Positions 1,071 through 10,558 of a stretch of DNA of 64,000 nucleotides are shown in pieces. This stretch comes from Escherichia coli (lineage in GTDB: Bacteria; Pseudomonadota; Gammaproteobacteria; Enterobacterales; Enterobacteriaceae): the NCBI RefSeq assembly GCF_013122565.1, contig NZ_CP053258.1; one strand, written 5' to 3'. Every line of letters begins with the position of its first letter. The stretch's first letter is position 1. The notes beneath the pieces were generated by a model. The model did not search any database, was not told the DNA's origin, and worked only from the letters and a program-made list of their open reading frames with translations. Both the position numbers and the translations under genes were made by a program.

Positions 1071-2174
1071 TTATTTGGTTAAATTGGGGCTGCCACCACG
1101 ATTTCTACGCAGTCTGCGTTTTACGCGCTTAATAAAGCGAGCAACTTTCCAGGCACGCTTAATGCAATATCCATAGAGGAAGAATGCTAGCAAAAAGAGC
1201 ACCAGCATGACCCACTCCGGGACAAAATGAGAATATTCTGCCAGCACGCCAATGGAAGCGAGCAGTGCTGCGGCAAGGGTAATCAGCACAAACGCCTGAC
1301 GGGAAGTAAACCCGGCACGCATGATCAAATGGTGAATATGCTGACGGTCAGGAGAGAATGGGCTCATGCCTTTACGCAGGCGACGGTACATAATCGCCAC
1401 CATATCCATTAGCGGAATGGCGATTATCCACAAAGCGGTAACCGGGCTGATGGGATGGGTTTTGCCCTGGGTCGTTTCGAGCAGGATCCAGATAACGGTA
1501 AAACCAATCAGCGTACTGCCCGCATCACCCATAAAGACTTTGTAGCGGCGACCCAGGATACCAAGGTTAAGCATGATATATGGCAGGATGGCGGCGATCA
1601 TCGCAAAGCACCAGATTGCGAGGCTGGTTTGCCCGTCGAACCACAAAATCATACCGATTGCTGCAAACGAGACGCAGGACAACCCGCCCAGCAAGCCATC
1701 AATGCCATCAACCATGTTGAAGGCATTAATGGCCGCCCAGACGGCAAATAGCGTCAGGAAGTAACCAAACGGTCCGAGCACCATCTCCCAGGAGCCAAAG
1801 ATATAACCCAGGCTACTGAGATAAAGGTTGCCAAACACCATCATAACAATGCCAACAGCGGCCTGTATGGTGGCACGGATTTTTACGCTGATATCAAAAC
1901 GGTCATCCAGCGCGCCAATGAAAACAAGCACACCGGCACAAGCGAGATAGAGAGATGCATGCGGAATATAGTAATCGACAATTCCGAACGTGAAGCAAAT
2001 CCCTGCGTAAACCGAAATACCCCCAACGAGTGGTATCAACCCCTGGTGACGTTTGCGGAAGTTTGGTTTATCCACTAAACCGACTTTTTTTGCCACCTTA
2101 CGGGCAAAAAACAGAAACAGTGTCGTGAATAAAAAAATACTGATGAGATCAGTACTCACTGTCAGTAAATTCAC
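1071..2174 (-). CDS. wecA: UDP-GlcNAc:undecaprenyl-phosphate GlcNAc-1-phosphate transferase WecA (Rfe)
   Basis: 367-aa polytopic membrane ORF (MNLLTVSTDLISIFLF...); length and position downstream of rho match WecA. Confidence 0.9.
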   Translation of the reverse strand: MNLLTVSTDLISIFLFTTLFLFFARKVAKKVGLVDKPNFRKRHQGLIPLVGGISVYAGICFTFGIVDYYIPHASLYLACAGVLVFIGALDDRFDISVKIRATIQAAVGIVMMVFGNLYLSSLGYIFGSWEMVLGPFGYFLTLFAVWAAINAFNMVDGIDGLLGGLSCVSFAAIGMILWFDGQTSLAIWCFAMIAAILPYIMLNLGILGRRYKVFMGDAGSTLIGFTVIWILLETTQGKTHPISPVTALWIIAIPLMDMVAIMYRRLRKGMSPFSPDRQHIHHLIMRAGFTSRQAFVLITLAAALLASIGVLAEYSHFVPEWVMLVLFLLAFFLYGYCIKRAWKVARFIKRVKRRLRRNRGGSPNLTK

Positions 2175-2413: not shown

Positions 2414-3673
2414 TTATGAGCGTTTCATCATTTCGAAGAAATCGTCATTGGTCTTGGTCATTGCCAGTTTATTAATGAGGAATTCCATTGCATCGATTTC
2501 GCCCATCGGGTGAATGATTTTGCGCAGGATCCACATTTTCTGCAGTTCTTCCTGAGTAGTGAGCAGTTCTTCTTTACGGGTACCGGAACGGTTGTAGTCG
2601 ATAGCCGGGAAGACGCGTTTTTCAGCAATCTTACGAGAAAGGTGCAGTTCCATGTTGCCTGTACCTTTAAACTCTTCGTAGATAACTTCGTCCATTTTAG
2701 AACCGGTATCGATAAGCGCCGTCGCGATAATGGTCAGGCTGCCGCCCTCTTCCACGTTACGCGCCGCACCGAAGAAGCGTTTCGGACGATGAAGGGCATT
2801 GGCGTCCACACCACCGGTCAACACTTTACCTGACGCCGGAACAACAGTGTTGTAAGCGCGCGCCAGACGAGTGATGGAGTCGAGCAGAATGATAACGTCT
2901 TTCTTGTGCTCAACCAGGCGTTTGGCCTTCTCGATCACCATTTCCGCAACCTGAACGTGGCGAGATGCGGGTTCGTCAAAGGTAGAAGCAACAACTTCAC
3001 CTTTTACCAGACGCTGCATCTCGGTTACTTCTTCCGGACGTTCGTCGATCAGCAGAACCATCAGCACACAATCCGGGTGGTTGTAAGCAATGCTCTGAGC
3101 AATGTTCTGCAGCAGCATAGTTTTACCGGCTTTCGGCGGTGCCACAATCAGACCACGCTGACCACGACCGATAGGTGATGCCAGATCCAGTACGCGAGCG
3201 GTTAAATCTTCAGTAGAACCGTTACCACGTTCCATACGCAGACGAGAGTTTGCGTGCAGCGGGGTTAAGTTCTCAAAGAGGATTTTGTTGCGGGCGTTTT
3301 CAGGTTTGTCGAAGTTAACTTCGTTAACTTTCAGCAGCGCAAAATAGCGTTCACCTTCTTTCGGCGGGCGAATCTTACCAGAGATGGTATCACCAGTGCG
3401 GAGGTTGAAACGGCGGATTTGGCTAGGGGAAACGTAGATGTCATCAGGACCGGCGAGGTAGGAGCTGTCTGCGGAACGGAGGAAACCAAATCCATCCTGC
3501 AATATCTCCAGTACGCCATCACCAAAGATATCTTCGCCACTCTTTGCGTGCTGCTTCAGGATGGCAAAAATAATGTCCTGCTTACGCATACGAGCCAGGT
3601 TTTCCAGCCCCATATTTTCGCCGAGAGTGATCAGCTCAGAAACCGGCGTATTCTTTAATTCGGTAAGATTCAT
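2414..3673 (-). CDS. rho: Transcription termination factor Rho
   Basis: ORF 2414..3745 contains [36 protein letters not shown]... with Walker A GKT; start set at Met-25 of the ORF (3673) to give the 419-aa Rho. Confidence 0.95.
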
Positions 3674-4459: not shown

Positions 4460-5725
4460 ATGAGCAAAACACATTTAACAGAACAGAAGTTTTCCGACTT
4501 CGCCCTGCATCCGAAGGTTGTAGAAGCCCTTGAAAAAAAAGGGTTTCATAACTGTACGCCCATTCAGGCACTGGCCCTTCCGCTGACGCTGGCGGGTCGT
4601 GACGTAGCCGGGCAGGCGCAAACCGGTACCGGGAAAACGATGGCGTTTCTTACGTCAACGTTTCATTATCTTCTCTCTCATCCTGCGATTGCCGATCGCA
4701 AGGTGAATCAACCACGTGCCTTAATTATGGCACCGACGCGTGAACTTGCCGTGCAGATCCATGCCGACGCAGAACCGCTGGCGGAAGCTACCGGCCTGAA
4801 GCTGGGTCTGGCTTACGGTGGTGATGGCTACGACAAACAGCTGAAAGTGCTGGAAAGCGGCGTTGACATTCTGATTGGCACTACGGGGCGTTTAATTGAC
4901 TACGCCAAGCAGAACCACATTAACCTCGGTGCCATTCAGGTGGTGGTACTGGACGAAGCCGATCGCATGTACGATCTGGGCTTTATTAAAGATATCCGCT
5001 GGCTGTTCCGCCGTATGCCGCCTGCAAACCAGCGCCTCAACATGCTGTTCTCCGCCACGCTTTCGTACCGGGTACGTGAACTGGCGTTCGAGCAGATGAA
5101 CAATGCCGAATATATTGAAGTGGAACCGGAACAGAAAACGGGCCACCGTATTAAAGAAGAGCTTTTCTACCCTTCTAACGAAGAAAAAATGCGTTTGCTC
5201 CAAACGCTGATCGAAGAAGAGTGGCCAGACAGAGCGATTATTTTCGCCAACACAAAACACCGTTGTGAAGAGATCTGGGGCCACCTGGCGGCAGATGGTC
5301 ATCGTGTCGGTTTGTTGACAGGCGATGTCGCGCAGAAAAAACGTCTGCGTATTCTTGATGAATTTACCCGTGGCGATCTGGATATTTTGGTTGCCACCGA
5401 CGTTGCCGCGCGTGGTTTGCATATCCCGGCTGTGACACACGTCTTTAACTACGATTTACCCGATGACTGTGAAGATTACGTTCACCGTATTGGTCGTACA
5501 GGCCGCGCAGGCGCAAGCGGTCACTCTATTAGCCTGGCATGTGAAGAGTATGCATTGAATTTGCCTGCTATTGAGACCTATATTGGTCACTCAATTCCGG
5601 TAAGCAAATACAATCCGGACGCATTGATGACCGATCTGCCAAAACCGCTGCGCCTCACGCGCCCGCGCACAGGCAATGGTCCGCGTCGTACTGGCGCTCC
5701 GCGTAATCGTCGTCGTTCAGGTTAA
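4460..5725 (+). CDS. rhlB: ATP-dependent RNA helicase RhlB (DEAD-box)
   Basis: 421-aa ORF with DEAD-box helicase motifs ([27 protein letters not shown]) and an Arg-rich C-terminus; divergent from trxA as in E. coli. Confidence 0.95.
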
Positions 5726-5860
5726 ATAAAAAATGTCATACTCAAAATCATTCAAACTGTATCAAGATGGCAAGAGAATGAATCCCGATGAACTTACTGT
5801 AGTAAGTGATTCTGGTGAAAGAATGCAGCCAACACAGAGACAGATTGAAGGATGAAGAGT

Positions 5861-7345
5861 ATGGGTTCCACCTCGTCGCTGTATGCAGCCATTGATCTCG
5901 GTTCGAATAGTTTTCATATGCTGGTTGTGCGCGAGGTGGCTGGAAGCATCCAGACGCTGACGCGAATTAAACGCAAAGTGCGTCTGGCTGCTGGCCTGAA
6001 CAGCGAAAATGCCCTGTCTAATGAAGCAATGGAGCGCGGCTGGCAATGTTTGCGCCTGTTTGCTGAACGTCTGCAAGATATCCCTCCCTCGCAAATTCGC
6101 GTTGTCGCAACGGCAACGTTACGCCTTGCCGTCAATGCGGGTGATTTTATTGCCAAAGCGCAGGAAATTCTCGGTTGTCCGGTACAGGTGATCAGTGGTG
6201 AAGAGGAGGCGCGTCTGATTTATCAGGGCGTTGCTCACACCACTGGTGGTGCCGATCAGCGCCTGGTGGTGGATATCGGCGGTGCCAGTACGGAACTGGT
6301 AACCGGCACGGGTGCACAAACTACCTCGTTGTTCAGCCTGTCGATGGGCTGCGTCACCTGGCTGGAACGCTATTTTGCCGATCGTAATCTGGGGCAGGAA
6401 AATTTTGATGCTGCAGAAAAAGCGGCACGCAAAGTGTTACGTCCGGTTGCCGATGAATTACGGTATCACGGCTGGAAAGTGTGCGTTGGCGCTTCCGGCA
6501 CCGTGCAGGCGTTACAGGAAATCATGATGGCACAGGGGATGGATGAACGCATTACCCTGGAAAAGTTGCAGCAACTGAAACAACGCGCCATTCATTGCGG
6601 TCGGCTGGAAGAGCTAGAGATTGACGGGCTGACGCTGGAACGTGCGTTAGTGTTCCCGAGTGGTCTGGCGATCCTGATCGCCATTTTTACCGAACTGAAT
6701 ATTCAGTGTATGACCCTGGCTGGCGGTGCGCTGCGTGAAGGCCTGGTCTACGGCATGTTGCATCTGGCCGTCGAGCAGGATATTCGCAGCCGTACGCTGC
6801 GTAATATTCAGCGCCGCTTTATGATCGATATTGATCAGGCGCAGCGCGTAGCCAAAGTTGCAGCTAACTTCTTCGATCAGGTGGAAAACGAATGGCATCT
6901 TGAAGCGATAAGCCGCGATTTGCTCATCAGCGCCTGTCAGCTTCATGAAATCGGCCTGAGCGTTGACTTCAAACAAGCGCCGCAACACGCTGCTTATCTG
7001 GTGCGTAATCTGGATCTTCCCGGTTTTACCCCCGCACAGAAAAAATTGCTGGCGACGCTACTGCTCAACCAGACTAATCCGGTCGATCTCTCATCGCTGC
7101 ATCAGCAAAATGCCGTACCGCCGCGCGTCGCAGAACAACTCTGCCGTTTACTCCGCCTGGCCATCATTTTTGCCAGCCGTCGTCGTGACGATCTCGTGCC
7201 AGAGATGACATTACAGGCTAACCATGAACTGTTGACCTTGACGCTTCCGCAAGGTTGGTTAACCCAACATCCGCTGGGTAAAGAGATTATTGCTCAGGAA
7301 AGCCAGTGGCAGAGCTATGTCCACTGGCCGCTGGAAGTGCATTAA
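5861..7345 (+). CDS. gppA: Guanosine pentaphosphate phosphohydrolase / exopolyphosphatase GppA
   Basis: ORF 5852..7345; start set at [23 protein letters not shown] (Ppx/GppA family N-terminus); about 494 aa. Confidence 0.9.
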
Positions 7346-7391: not shown

Positions 7392-9413
7392 TTATTTCCC
7401 TCGTTTTGCCGCCATCATCGCTTTCAGATTCGCCAGATGGCTTTGCCCTTTCTGCATCCGTTCTTCGGCGCTGACCACTTTGCGCTCCTGTTCCCAAATC
7501 AGATCATCCTGCGGCAGCTCCAGCAAAAAGCGGCTCGGCTCCGGGCGCACCAGTTCGCCGTACTGACGGCGTTCTTTACACAGTGTAAAGGTCAATTCCT
7601 TCTGGGCGCGGGTAATGCCGACATAGGCCAGCCGCCGCTCCTCATCGATATTATCTTCATCGATGCTGCTCTGGTGCGGCAAAAAACCTTCTTCCATACC
7701 GACCATGTAGACATAAGGAAACTCCAGCCCTTTCGACGCGTGGAGAGTCATCAGTTGCACCTGATCCAGCTCTTCTTCACTCTCACCACGCTCCATCATG
7801 TCGCGCAAAGTAAAGCGCGTCACCACCTGGGTGAGCGTCATCGGCTCATCCAGTTCGCTGCCTTCCAGCATCTCCGTCATCCAGCTAAATAACTGGTTAA
7901 CGTTTTTCATACGCATTTCGGCGGCTTTCGGGCTGGGTGAGGTTTCGTACAGCCAGGATTCATAATCCATGCCGTGGATCAGATCGCGCACCGCGGCAAT
8001 CGGCTCCCGCTCCGCCAGACGCTGGATTTCTGCCAACCAGTGAGTGAAGCGGGTCAATGCTTCATAACCACGTCCGCTAAGCGTCTGACTCAGGCCCATA
8101 TCAAAGCTGGCGGTAAACATGCTTTTATTGCGCGTCATCGCCCACTCCCCCAGCTTTTTCAGCGTCGCCGGGCCAATCTCTCGCTTCGGCGTGTTGACGA
8201 TACGCAGAAATGCGCTGTCATCGTCCGGGTTAGTCAGCACGCGCAGATAAGCCAGCAAGTCCTTGATTTCAGGACGAGAGAAAAACGACGTACCACCAGA
8301 TATTTTGTACGGGATGCGGTTTTGCATCAGGAATTTTTCAAACACCCGCGACTGATGGTTACCGCGATAAAGAATAGCGTAATCTTTGTACTGCGTTTTA
8401 TTGACGAAGTGATGCGCAATCAGTTCACCAGTGACGCGCTCGGCTTCATGTTCTTCATTATTCGCGCTTAAAACTTTTAGCTCTGTGCCGTAACCCAGTT
8501 CGGAGAACAGACGCTTTTCAAAGACGTGCGGGTTATTGGCGATCAGGATGTTCGCCGCTTTCAAAATACGTCCGGAAGAGCGGTAGTTCTGCTCAAGCTT
8601 AATCACCTTCAGCGCCGGGAAATCCTGGCTCAGCAGCACCAGGTTTTGCGGACGTGCGCCGCGCCAGGAGTAGATCGACTGGTCATCGTCACCCACCACG
8701 GTAAAGCGCGCGCGGCTGCCCACCAGCAGTTTCACCAGTTCATACTGGCTGGTGTTGGTGTCCTGATACTCATCCACCAGCAGGTAGCGAATTTTGTTCT
8801 GCCAGCGTTCGCGTACTTCTTCATTGCGTTGCAGCAGCAACGTCGGCAATAAAATCAGGTCATCGAAGTCGAGAACGTTACAGGCTTTCAGGTGTGCATC
8901 ATACAGCCCATAACAATGGGCAAAAATACGATCCCGCTCGCCCTTTGCCTCTGCCGCCGCCTGCGCCGGAGTTTTGAGATCGTTCTTCCAGTTGGAGATG
9001 GTCGAAATCAGCTGTTGCAGGAGAACTTTGTCATCTTCAATCAGCCCCTCGGTCAGCTCTTTAAGCAAAGCAAGCTGATCGGTATCGTCAAACAACGAGA
9101 AGTTTGCTTTCATCCCAAGCGCCGCATACTCGCGTTTGATGATATCCAGCCCCAGTGTGTGGAAGGTGGAGATCATCAGCCCACGCGCCTCTTTGCGACC
9201 CAGCGTCTGCCCGACACGCTCTTTCATCTCGCGCGCCGCCTTATTGGTAAAGGTCACCGCCGCGATATGTCGCGCCTGATAACCACAACCGCGGATCAGA
9301 TGGGCAATTTTATTGGTGATAACACGAGTTTTACCGGAACCCGCGCCCGCCAGCACCAGGCAGGGGCCGGTAACGAATTCGACAGCTTGTTGTTGGCCGG
9401 GGTTTAGACGCAT
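7392..9413 (-). CDS. rep: ATP-dependent DNA helicase Rep
   Basis: ORF 7392..9428; start set at [32 protein letters not shown] (UvrD/Rep family, Walker A GSGKT); 673 aa. Confidence 0.9.
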
Positions 9414-9629
9414 AGGTGTATTGCTCAATCTTCGAACGGGAGGAGGATTGTAGCAGAATCACATTTGAATGTGACCGCGTGTAAGCCGCTAACCGGTTGG
9501 CTGTGGATGTTTAAATCAGAGAGGGAAGACCGAAACCGGAGTTCATTGTGAATCAATTAGACTTAGAAAATATCGGGTCGTAACGTTGTGTTATTACTTT
9601 TTCAGAGTTTACTAAGGAGAGGTTTACTC

Positions 9630-10079
9630 GTGGCGATTAATTTCAGCCCTAAGGTTGGTGAAATACTGGAATGCAACTTTGGTAACTATCCTGTTAGCCA
9701 GAATGGACAGTTCAGCACGACGTATTACGATGGCCGCATTCCTCCTGAAATGATAAAAAACAGGTTAGTTGTCGTGCTCAACGGAAAAATTAATGGCAAC
9801 GCATGTATCGTCGTTCCATTATCAACCACTCGCGACCATGACAAGTTAAATCGTGGAATGCATGTTGAAATAGCCAGTAATGTTATCAATGATCTGCAAT
9901 TCTTTGATCAGCAGATTCGTTGGGCCAAAGCCGACCTGGTACAACAAGTCAGTCGAAACCGATTAAACAGAGCAAGGACTTACAGAGGGTATCTTAATCA
10001 ATGTTTGCCATATGAGTTGGTTGCAGACATACAGAGGGCGGTCATCAAGTCAATCAATGCCATATCGCTCATAAATTGA
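9630..10079 (+). CDS. yifN: PemK/MazF-family toxin-like protein (yifN-like), apparently intact
   Basis: ORF 9588..10079; GTG at 9630 lies 9 nt after an aaggaga Shine-Dalgarno. Product (VAINFSPKVGEILECNFG...RLVVVLNGK...CIVVPLSTTRDH...) resembles PemK/MazF-type toxins by eye. Position between rep and ppiC matches yifN. True start (ATG 9588 or GTG 9630) is uncertain. Confidence 0.6.
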   Translation: MAINFSPKVGEILECNFGNYPVSQNGQFSTTYYDGRIPPEMIKNRLVVVLNGKINGNACIVVPLSTTRDHDKLNRGMHVEIASNVINDLQFFDQQIRWAKADLVQQVSRNRLNRARTYRGYLNQCLPYELVADIQRAVIKSINAISLIN

Positions 10080-10155
10080 CAATAAAATCACCATCCCCGA
10101 TAATGACTTTGTAGCCCATAGAGGCCCTAAGTTTTCTCCCCTTGAGGGACCTGCG

Positions 10156-10180
10156 AAGCCCGGATTTTCCGGGCTTTTGC
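10156..10180 (+). terminator. Hairpin/terminator-like element downstream of the yifN-like ORF
   Basis: aagcccgga-ttt-tccgggctt followed by ttg; short U-tract, so of moderate strength. Confidence 0.4.
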
Positions 10181-10252
10181 CATATATGTACCCCCCCACC
10201 CTGACTGACAATTACGTTAGCATCTGCGGATCATGCTAAAATCGCCGCCTGA

Positions 10253-10558
<306 letters not shown>

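Follow-up and report, generated by a model that had tools for sequence, protein, structure and literature searches.

The yifN gene of Escherichia coli and its RNA neighbour: a candidate RNA-antitoxin module

Toxin genes without a visible antitoxin, the "orphan" toxins, have long puzzled students of toxin-antitoxin (TA) systems. The family of YifN is annotated as "type II" though no protein antitoxin is found. The yifN gene raises the question in a 64,000-nucleotide stretch of Escherichia coli DNA (contig NZ_CP053258.1 of assembly GCF_013122565.1; the whole stretch is called the window below), where it is flanked by gppA, rep, ppiC, ilvC and ilvY, as in E. coli generally. In other E. coli, the RefSeq label for the intact allele is "type II toxin-antitoxin system PemK/MazF family toxin". 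A sequence-only reading of the window took yifN for an apparently solitary toxin gene of that family, with no antitoxin open reading frame (ORF) adjacent. What, then, is the partner of YifN?

The answer proposed here is an RNA. "Solitary" does not survive comparison: an RNA gene stands beside all 36 full-length YifN genes examined. That yifN and the RNA gene downstream of it make up a two-gene module, belonging to an RNA-antitoxin, type III-like TA family with a MazF-fold toxin, strikes us as an even bet. What the analysis establishes is an intact gene, the fold and conserved residues of its product, and an RNA gene that is expressed in K-12, has a repeat architecture (plain in subfamilies other than that of E. 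coli) and is strictly linked to YifN.

An intact gene for a MazF-fold protein

The continuous 149-codon ORF with a ribosome-binding site (RBS) that had been read from the sequence is indeed there. Its features, each on the + strand, are:

9630-10079, +: yifN coding sequence, intact, 149 amino acids (aa), GTG start, stop codon TGA at 10077-10079
9614-9620, +: Shine-Dalgarno sequence AAGGAGA for the 9630 start, read from the sequence
9588-9590, +: in-frame upstream GTG, a possible minor start giving a 163-aa form, from the ORF list

The 163-aa form had also been proposed, with an ATG at 9588; the length is right and the codon is GTG. A Ribo-RET preprint reports initiation of yifN at the annotated site and at an upstream site, both used. 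The 163-aa extension is not conserved among homologues. The 9630 start is favoured because all homologues in the alignment begin uniformly with M-[AP]-I-N-F.

Profile and fold alike place YifN in the PemK/MazF family, as had been supposed from its look alone. The Pfam family PemK_toxin (PF02452) matches with E 3.6e-10 (40.4 bits, cutoff 23.1), aligning YifN residues 37-141 with profile positions 14-108 of 109. With an AlphaFold2 model of YifN (predicted local distance difference test, pLDDT, 77; predicted template modelling score, pTM, 0.72), Foldseek retrieves only MazF proteins as its top 50 PDB matches (target template modelling score 0.64-0.78, E 1e-5 to 1e-3), those of Staphylococcus aureus, Bacillus subtilis and Mycobacterium tuberculosis among them (E ~1e-5, score 0.7-0.78).

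The MazF catalytic pair is R25/T48 in B. subtilis and R29/T52 in E. coli. Across 42 aligned homologues, whose identity to the window YifN is 44-86%, 18 residues are invariant; the window YifN has them all, and E40, K43, R45, P63 and S65 are among them. Profile-profile alignment with hhalign (a weak match, E 1.2e-3, against a MazF/Kid reference alignment of five sequences) puts S65 on B. subtilis T48; hhalign of single sequences, YifN against B. subtilis MazF, was uninformative. R45, within the motif E-x-x-K-x-R that is followed by VVPxS, would correspond to the catalytic R25, as judged from the motif and the range of the Pfam match, not from an alignment. R45 and S65 are invariant in all 42 homologues, which gives no sign that the catalytic core is lost. 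Since putative equivalents of the MazF catalytic Arg and Thr are retained, YifN is probably a sequence-specific endoribonuclease toxin.

Membership in the PemK/MazF family notwithstanding, YifN is, by its sequence, a distinct and separate small clade, with 505 clusters at E<=1e-3 and 129 at <=1e-10 among 1.84 billion representatives. Truncated YifN protein clusters are common. NCBIfam and PADLOC scans of YifN gave zero matches.

The ORF list holds no antitoxin-sized ORF in the 200 nucleotides (nt) upstream of yifN. When ORFs within 700 nt of YifN were clustered for 37 loci, nothing was shared beyond six closely related Pseudomonas chromosomes, a case of local synteny. With no ORF family recurring beside YifN, the protein-antitoxin hypothesis was rejected; this part of the sequence-only reading was correct.

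A small RNA gene downstream of yifN

The DNA between yifN and ppiC contains a compact transcription unit, again on the + strand:

10076-10104, +: small RNA (sRNA) promoter, TTGACA, 17-nt spacer, GATAAT; 11/12 consensus positions in a promoter scan
10111-10181, +: YifN-associated RNA, equal to ecr3777(d+); covariance-model match, 77 bits, E 5e-16
10114-10125, +: mini-hairpin unit 1, GCC-CAUAGA-GGC; RNAalifold helix 1, 100% paired in 47 distinct sequences
10137-10148, +: mini-hairpin unit 2, UCC-CCUUGA-GGG, 23 nt after unit 1; RNAalifold helix 2, 95.6% paired
10156-10181, +: intrinsic terminator, stem AAGCCCGGA / UCCGGGCUU then UUGCC; inverted-repeat search

The yifN stop codon lies inside the -35 hexamer of this promoter, and the RNA begins about 7 nt downstream of the promoter. 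The match at 10111-10181 is the only one that the covariance model makes in the window. In the sequences shown from other genera the RNA likewise follows a promoter of this kind, TTGAC(A)...TAnAAT.

The transcript has been seen in K-12. Romero et al. 2014 (PMC4681348) list in Table S5 a 79-nt RNA, ecr3777(d+), which is encoded on the same strand in the interval from yifO/yifN to ppiC; they also present a northern analysis of the small RNA "downstream of yifN", and state that ecr3777(d+) was also detected by Conway et al. 2014. In window coordinates ecr3777(d+) spans about 10111-10190, so the transcript may reach about 10190. The predicted fold has a minimum free energy (MFE) of -27.8 kcal/mol (z = -2.9).

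Databases do not hold this RNA. Rfam 15 contains no matching family: the best score in the window, 20.8 bits, falls well below the gathering score of 70, and no match appears even at E<=10; seven diverse loci likewise gave no gathering-level match. No RNA gene is annotated at this site in MG1655 RefSeq, and in the genomes listed no RefSeq feature of any kind overlaps the RNA.

The RNA is a real gene separate from yifN, with its own promoter and terminator. A terminator-like hairpin had been noticed after yifN; the hairpin is real (arms 10156-10164/10168-10176), and it belongs to the ~75-nt RNA gene instead of being a mere terminator of yifN.

RNA and YifN occur together

From 45 YifN-related loci in one-genome-per-species contigs, 30 distinct RNAs were aligned to build a covariance model, R1. 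This model finds the RNA beside 36/36 loci with a full-length YifN at least 38% identical, and nowhere else in 306 kb. It finds no RNA at a truncated Haemophilus paracuniculus locus (L050) or at PemK-like genes that are 25-34% identical. The RNA-bearing loci span the Gamma- and Betaproteobacteria, from Enterobacterales to Burkholderiales.

The arrangement of the two genes is not fixed. Mostly the RNA lies on the same strand, directly downstream of yifN; in Serratia, on a Pseudomonas mobile element, and in Roseateles it follows YifN with a TTGACA promoter of its own in each case. It is convergent with YifN in Shewanella and on a Limnohabitans plasmid, and divergent, upstream of YifN, in Massilia and Herbaspirillum. 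Because position and orientation vary among loci, the RNA is not simply the yifN terminator.

Other neighbours of YifN change with the genus. E. coli has a divergent rep, Serratia genes for a MetQ-like lipoprotein and a MerR regulator, the Pseudomonas element small ORFs of unassigned function, Roseateles a gene for a 349-aa protein of unassigned function, and a Klebsiella plasmid genes for ParA and a ParG-like protein.

The Herbaspirillum and Massilia loci have further features of their own. Herbaspirillum (L044) carries two tandem RNA copies at 1482-1560 and 1639-1719 (- strand), with genes at 1959-2489 and 2501-3145 (+ strand); Massilia (L041) has one RNA at 1636-1714 (- strand), with genes at 1906-2481 and 2459-3142 (+ strand). 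YifN of these two genera is 214-227 aa long, has an Ala/Pro-rich C-terminal tail, and is encoded directly after a helix-turn-helix (HTH) gene of the HTH_36/DnaD_N-like type, whose product could be an extra regulator.

A scan that uses the RNA pattern only, and is thus independent of the protein, identified 16 loci in metagenome contigs, 16/16 of them genuine motifs. YifN is encoded immediately upstream in 10; another, convergent as in Limnohabitans, is truncated where the locus ends, and one contig is too short to show its neighbours. The remaining four, in three distinct contexts, have the RNA and no YifN, and are plasmid-like: the order is either ParA, a ribbon-helix-helix (RHH) gene, DUF4160, DUF2442, RNA and relaxase, or RNA and then ParM. 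On one such contig (L070) the RNA (5899-5970) comes right after a DUF4160/DUF2442 pair (5168-5834), with ParA and relaxase near; on another (L073) it lies at 369-440, just before a ParM gene at 809-1891.

Plasmids carry the pair as well. In PLSDB, about 97 plasmids have the RNA and 129 have YifN relatives. The module is carried by pCAR1 and by mobilisable plasmids of small size from Pasteurellaceae; on Klebsiella plasmids it follows ParA and a ParG-like gene; and on conjugative plasmids of E. coli an IS2 insertion can interrupt the yifN-like gene and leave the RNA in place. An example is pCV839-06-p2 (L082; 263-358, 1210-1527, 1498-2726, 3001-3075). The plasmid-type YifN homologue is 157 aa long and 55% identical to the chromosomal protein, and a DinQ-like type I toxin gene (dqlB) lies about 1 kb away. 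A strain could therefore hold two different YifN/RNA pairs, one chromosomal and one on a plasmid.

Phage genomes gave no match to the RNA. A first version of the pattern scan had produced six matches in viral contigs, all of them GC-rich chance hits without YifN, and the pattern was then tightened. Eleven Vibrio Vinavirales genomes of ~13 kb encode, at the genome end and directly behind a LexA/S24-like repressor gene, a PemK-like protein 27% identical to YifN; in Vibrio phage 10N.237.312.C11_PE001 (L089) the repressor gene lies at 576-1181 and the PemK-like gene at 1201-1620. The region downstream of the Vibrio phage gene, on inspection, has short CATTGAAG repeats and a terminator, and no clear homologue of the RNA.

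Among all loci examined, then, no full-length YifN (at least 38% identity) lacks the RNA, and the RNA occurs alone on some plasmid-like contigs. Presence of RNA without toxin, and never the reverse, is an asymmetry typical of toxin-antitoxin pairs.

This linkage would be explained equally well if RNA and YifN cooperated, the RNA serving not as inhibitor but as dedicated substrate, cofactor or sensor in a small ribonucleoprotein (one serving a mobile element or acting against phage, for example), and YifN alone not arresting growth. The RNA stays unchanged in the ~1,223 E. coli genomes with a frameshifted yifN, and stands alone on some plasmids, as one would expect of an RNA with an activity of its own; and YifN is a small distinct clade of 505 clusters, with no significant sequence match to a solved structure. 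We nevertheless consider cooperation of this kind unlikely. A protein never found alone and an RNA sometimes alone fit an antitoxin better, the putative equivalents of the MazF catalytic residues are invariant, and the module is found beside plasmid partition genes, the usual place of addiction modules.

Small hairpin units and a terminator

The consensus fold (RNAalifold) consists of two 3-bp mini-hairpins and a 10-bp terminator stem. Across 47 distinct sequences, pairing holds in 98.8% of cells. The terminator has compensatory changes in 7/10 stem pairs, and 0/500 shuffles equal the observed covariation. Unit 2 has double changes in 2/3 pairs. Units of the E. coli type share a 3-bp stem and a 6-nt loop of the form C-N-U-N-G-A, and both mini-hairpins are near-invariant within the core family. 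A long-range helix, GGCCCU/AGGGACC, in the single-sequence MFE fold was set aside because Herbaspirillum and Pseudomonas sequences break it and the small hairpins hold.

The case for the mini-hairpins rests on how alike the two are and on other subfamilies, whose RNA is unmistakably built of such a unit repeated in tandem. Distant subfamilies have clear 15-17-nt repeat units, twice over, with 24-26-nt spacing. Vibrio RNA contains AGCCGCAAGGCAAGUUU x2 at a spacing of 24, and Pasteurellaceae RNA UUCGGCUUAGACCGC x2, with stem and loop CGG-CUUAGA-CCG. In Haemophilus and Glaesserella the repeat is (U)UCGGCUUAGACCGC x2, spacing 25-26, where the loop CUUAGA resembles CAUAGA and the stem is CGG/CCG in place of GCC/GGC. 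The unit of the Pseudomonas plasmid, GGC-CUUUGA-GCC, has the stem GGC/GCC; Roseateles chitinivorans has three units at a spacing of 27. Outside the E. coli type, therefore, the RNA has two or three tandem units of ~25 nt, spaced 24-27 nt, and the unit sequence changes with the toxin subfamily.

Tandem short inverted repeats some 25 bp apart, which on some plasmids lie beside ParA/ParG or ParM genes, recall protein-binding sites, and the repeated GCC-N6-GGC elements might work as DNA: as operator or centromere-like sites for a plasmid or island protein. This is highly improbable. The repeats always have a promoter before them and a covarying intrinsic terminator after them, in a single strand orientation; K-12 makes a discrete 79-nt transcript; and most chromosomal copies have no partition genes nearby.

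A second alternative takes the RNA for an antitoxin acting in the manner of type I systems, by pairing with yifN mRNA (the C/U-rich unit 2 with the RBS, for example) and blocking translation or triggering decay. The sequence UUCUCCCCUU resembles an anti-Shine-Dalgarno and pairs with AAGGAGAG in E. coli with one mismatch; moreover, read-through of yifN would place the RNA sequence in the 3' untranslated region (UTR) at most loci. RNAduplex, however, applied to the RNA and the -80..+30 region of yifN at 24 loci, gave pairing no better than shuffles (z -1.5 to +1.8) and no consistent site, by a crude method that leaves room for weak pairing. The RBSs vary among loci and the RNA is constant, the RNA is not antisense to yifN, and tandem repeats that vary with the subfamily are foreign to type I antitoxins. 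We give this mode of action little credence.

How far the structured RNA extends beyond the core family is hinted at by gut metagenomes. A distant family member of 139 aa (L091; hhalign probability 99.3%) has 26-nt repeats with a 36-nt period and a terminator, all upstream of the toxin gene. This is the classical type III order, seen at a single locus type and taken as a lead only. At the distant gut-metagenome relatives L091 (1905-2110) and L093 (1670-1815) a promoter-like site, small hairpins, and a terminator also lie just 3' of the toxin gene, the hairpins including GCC-CUGAA-GGC and AGAC-UGAA-GUCU. Structured RNAs downstream of the toxin gene may, by this hint, be a general trait of the wider YifN clade.

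Intact, broken and absent yifN in E. coli

The K-12 MG1655 gene (b3777) is annotated as a 449-nt pseudogene in NC_000913.3, in agreement with the sequence-only reading. Alignment traces the frameshift to a single-base deletion in codon 70:

9837-9839, +: His70 codon, of which K-12 MG1655 has lost T9839 (alignment with NC_000913.3)

The window allele does not have that deletion, and most other E. coli are, like the window, intact at the T9839 site.

A 901-bp query segment (window 9380-10280) was compared with a collection of complete E. coli genomes. Of its 5,426 members, 3,975 contain 80% or more of the segment, and 1,223 have the exact K-12 frameshift allele. The best match to the segment is 98.7% identical, and one genome falls in the >=99% band; the window lineage is therefore not closely represented in the collection. 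The RNA is present in 4,015/5,426 genomes and is at least 99% identical over an 86-nt query in 3,163 of these 4,015, K-12 included despite its dead toxin.

Some 26% of the complete genomes have an unrelated 86-bp rep-ppiC spacer instead of the yifN locus. Between the window (9416-10260) and one such locus (L003, 2520-2640) the whole yifN and RNA segment, about 850 bp, is swapped for the 86-bp spacer. The replaced segment takes in sequence just upstream of ppiC: from the rep start codon to about 18 nt before the ppiC ATG, the two alleles have zero sequence in common, and ppiC upstream regions therefore differ between the allele classes. In the window, this region (10205-10278, 5' of ppiC) contains two promoter-like sites with identical hexamers, CTGACA-18-GATCAT, 44 nt apart; their likeness reflects a short sequence, CTGACAATTA, that is directly repeated in the leader of ppiC.

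Absence from about a quarter of genomes and frameshift in 1,223, together with common truncated clusters and the lack of NCBIfam and PADLOC matches, are what one would see if yifN were an orphan or decaying toxin gene, inactive or checked in trans (by MazE or ChpBI, for example), with the RNA unrelated or just a terminator. This was in outline the view of the sequence-only reading, and it now appears improbable. It does not account for 36/36 co-occurrence over Gamma- and Betaproteobacteria in three relative orientations, nor for RNA units that vary with the toxin subfamily, and 18 residues invariant at 44-86% identity argue against decay.

A proposed mechanism and its standing

The reading of the RNA as antitoxin draws on the MazF fold, the missing protein partner, the linked RNA, the subfamily-specific repeats, the asymmetry of occurrence, and the plasmid stability setting. 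The ~75-nt RNA, made from its own strong promoter, would be the neutralising partner of YifN. Its two hairpin units would occupy the two RNA grooves of a YifN dimer and act as uncleaved or slowly cleaved pseudo-substrates, holding YifN inactive, as type III RNA antitoxins do. A two-unit RNA would fit a dimeric MazF-type toxin, we infer, because such a toxin has two RNA grooves. Should RNA synthesis stop, through loss of the plasmid or island or through phage transcription shut-off, the RNA would decay and YifN would be freed. Toxicity and RNase activity of YifN, direct RNA-protein binding, neutralisation, and the relative stabilities of the two partners are all properties that we infer.

Several observations weigh against the RNA-antitoxin reading. 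A downstream RNA with its own promoter and two or three short units is a layout unlike that of all described type III systems. The mapping of catalytic residues rests on weak profile alignments (E 1.2e-3), and a family-profile sequence search of the PDB gave no significant match, MazF and Kid included, and only a chance match to YbaK. Covariation support for the mini-hairpins is weak because they are near-invariant in the core family, and the E. coli units are too diverged for a repeat-finder to call them repeats. A few relatives have small ORFs just upstream, or an HTH gene, which could be protein partners there. Finally, the RNA is unchanged in the ~1,223 genomes with frameshifted yifN, which also fits an RNA with a function of its own.

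The broadest form of the proposal is that YifN and its RNA constitute a previously unrecognised RNA-antitoxin (type III-like) family, the first with a bona fide MazF/PemK toxin, carried by some three in four E. coli chromosomes and by plasmids (IncP-7, IncX-type, those of Klebsiella and of Pasteurellaceae), in which RNA-only plasmid copies may be anti-addiction or anti-defence decoys. We put this forward tentatively, at somewhat short of an even chance. A search of the literature turned up no paper that ties an RNA partner to yifN or to orphan toxins of the PemK type; its coverage of subscription journals was thin, and a prior description is possible.

If the proposal is true, a northern-detected E. 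coli sRNA without assigned function gains a role, and a common chromosomal polymorphism of E. coli is explained in which yifN is intact, frameshifted or absent and the RNA is retained. Other "solitary" toxins may likewise have unannotated RNA partners. The idea is readily testable in E. coli because K-12 naturally has the RNA together with a dead toxin.

Comparison with known systems

With the type II systems MazEF, PemIK (Kis-Kid) and ChpBIK, YifN shares its fold, a significant Pfam match, and the context of a plasmid stability region; its conserved R45 and S65 would correspond to the catalytic Arg and Thr. It differs in having an insertion of about 20 residues after the first strand, in giving no significant profile match among solved-structure sequences, MazF/Kid included, in forming a separate clade, and in the absence of a MazE/PemI-type antitoxin gene. 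What defines MazEF/PemIK is a protein antitoxin, and since none was found in the 200 nt upstream or as a recurrent family at 37 loci, the YifN system does not belong to type II.

Type I systems with enzyme toxins, SymE-SymR and RalR-RalA, likewise combine a sizeable protein toxin with an adjacent small RNA. RNAs of the SymR/RalA type pair antisense with the toxin mRNA, whereas the YifN RNA is not antisense and gave no pairing signal in RNAduplex.

In Bacillota, pemK genes can be preceded by the pemK RNA motif, a cis-regulatory element of the 5' UTR. It too is a conserved RNA structure tied to PemK-family genes. Its sequence and structure are different, however, it acts upstream in cis, it belongs to another phylum, and the YifN RNA has no Rfam match at E<=10, to the pemK motif or any other family.

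The type III systems ToxIN, CptIN and TenpIN pair a toxin of Kid/MazF-related endoribonuclease fold with a small repeat RNA, not with a protein. The likeness extends to the sites (plasmids and chromosomal islands), to repeats that are specific to the toxin subfamily (clear in distant YifN subfamilies; in the E. coli type, two similar but diverged hairpins), and to an antitoxin-candidate RNA gene linked to the toxin gene (36/36 loci; 10/16 RNA-first matches). The distant YifN relative L091 even has the order repeats, terminator, toxin, the sole such case. The differences are that YifN belongs to Pfam PemK/MazF, not to ToxN, CptN or TenpN, and has MazF as its structural neighbours; that the core-family RNA is downstream, convergent or divergent with its own promoter, not upstream in one operon; and that its two or three units are simple ~25-nt hairpins in contrast to pseudoknot units of 36-45 nt. 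The YifN/RNA system would work most like type III but fails two of its defining features, toxin family and operon order. A MazF-fold toxin neutralised by RNA would, if the proposal is true, bridge the MazF/Kid and ToxN worlds.

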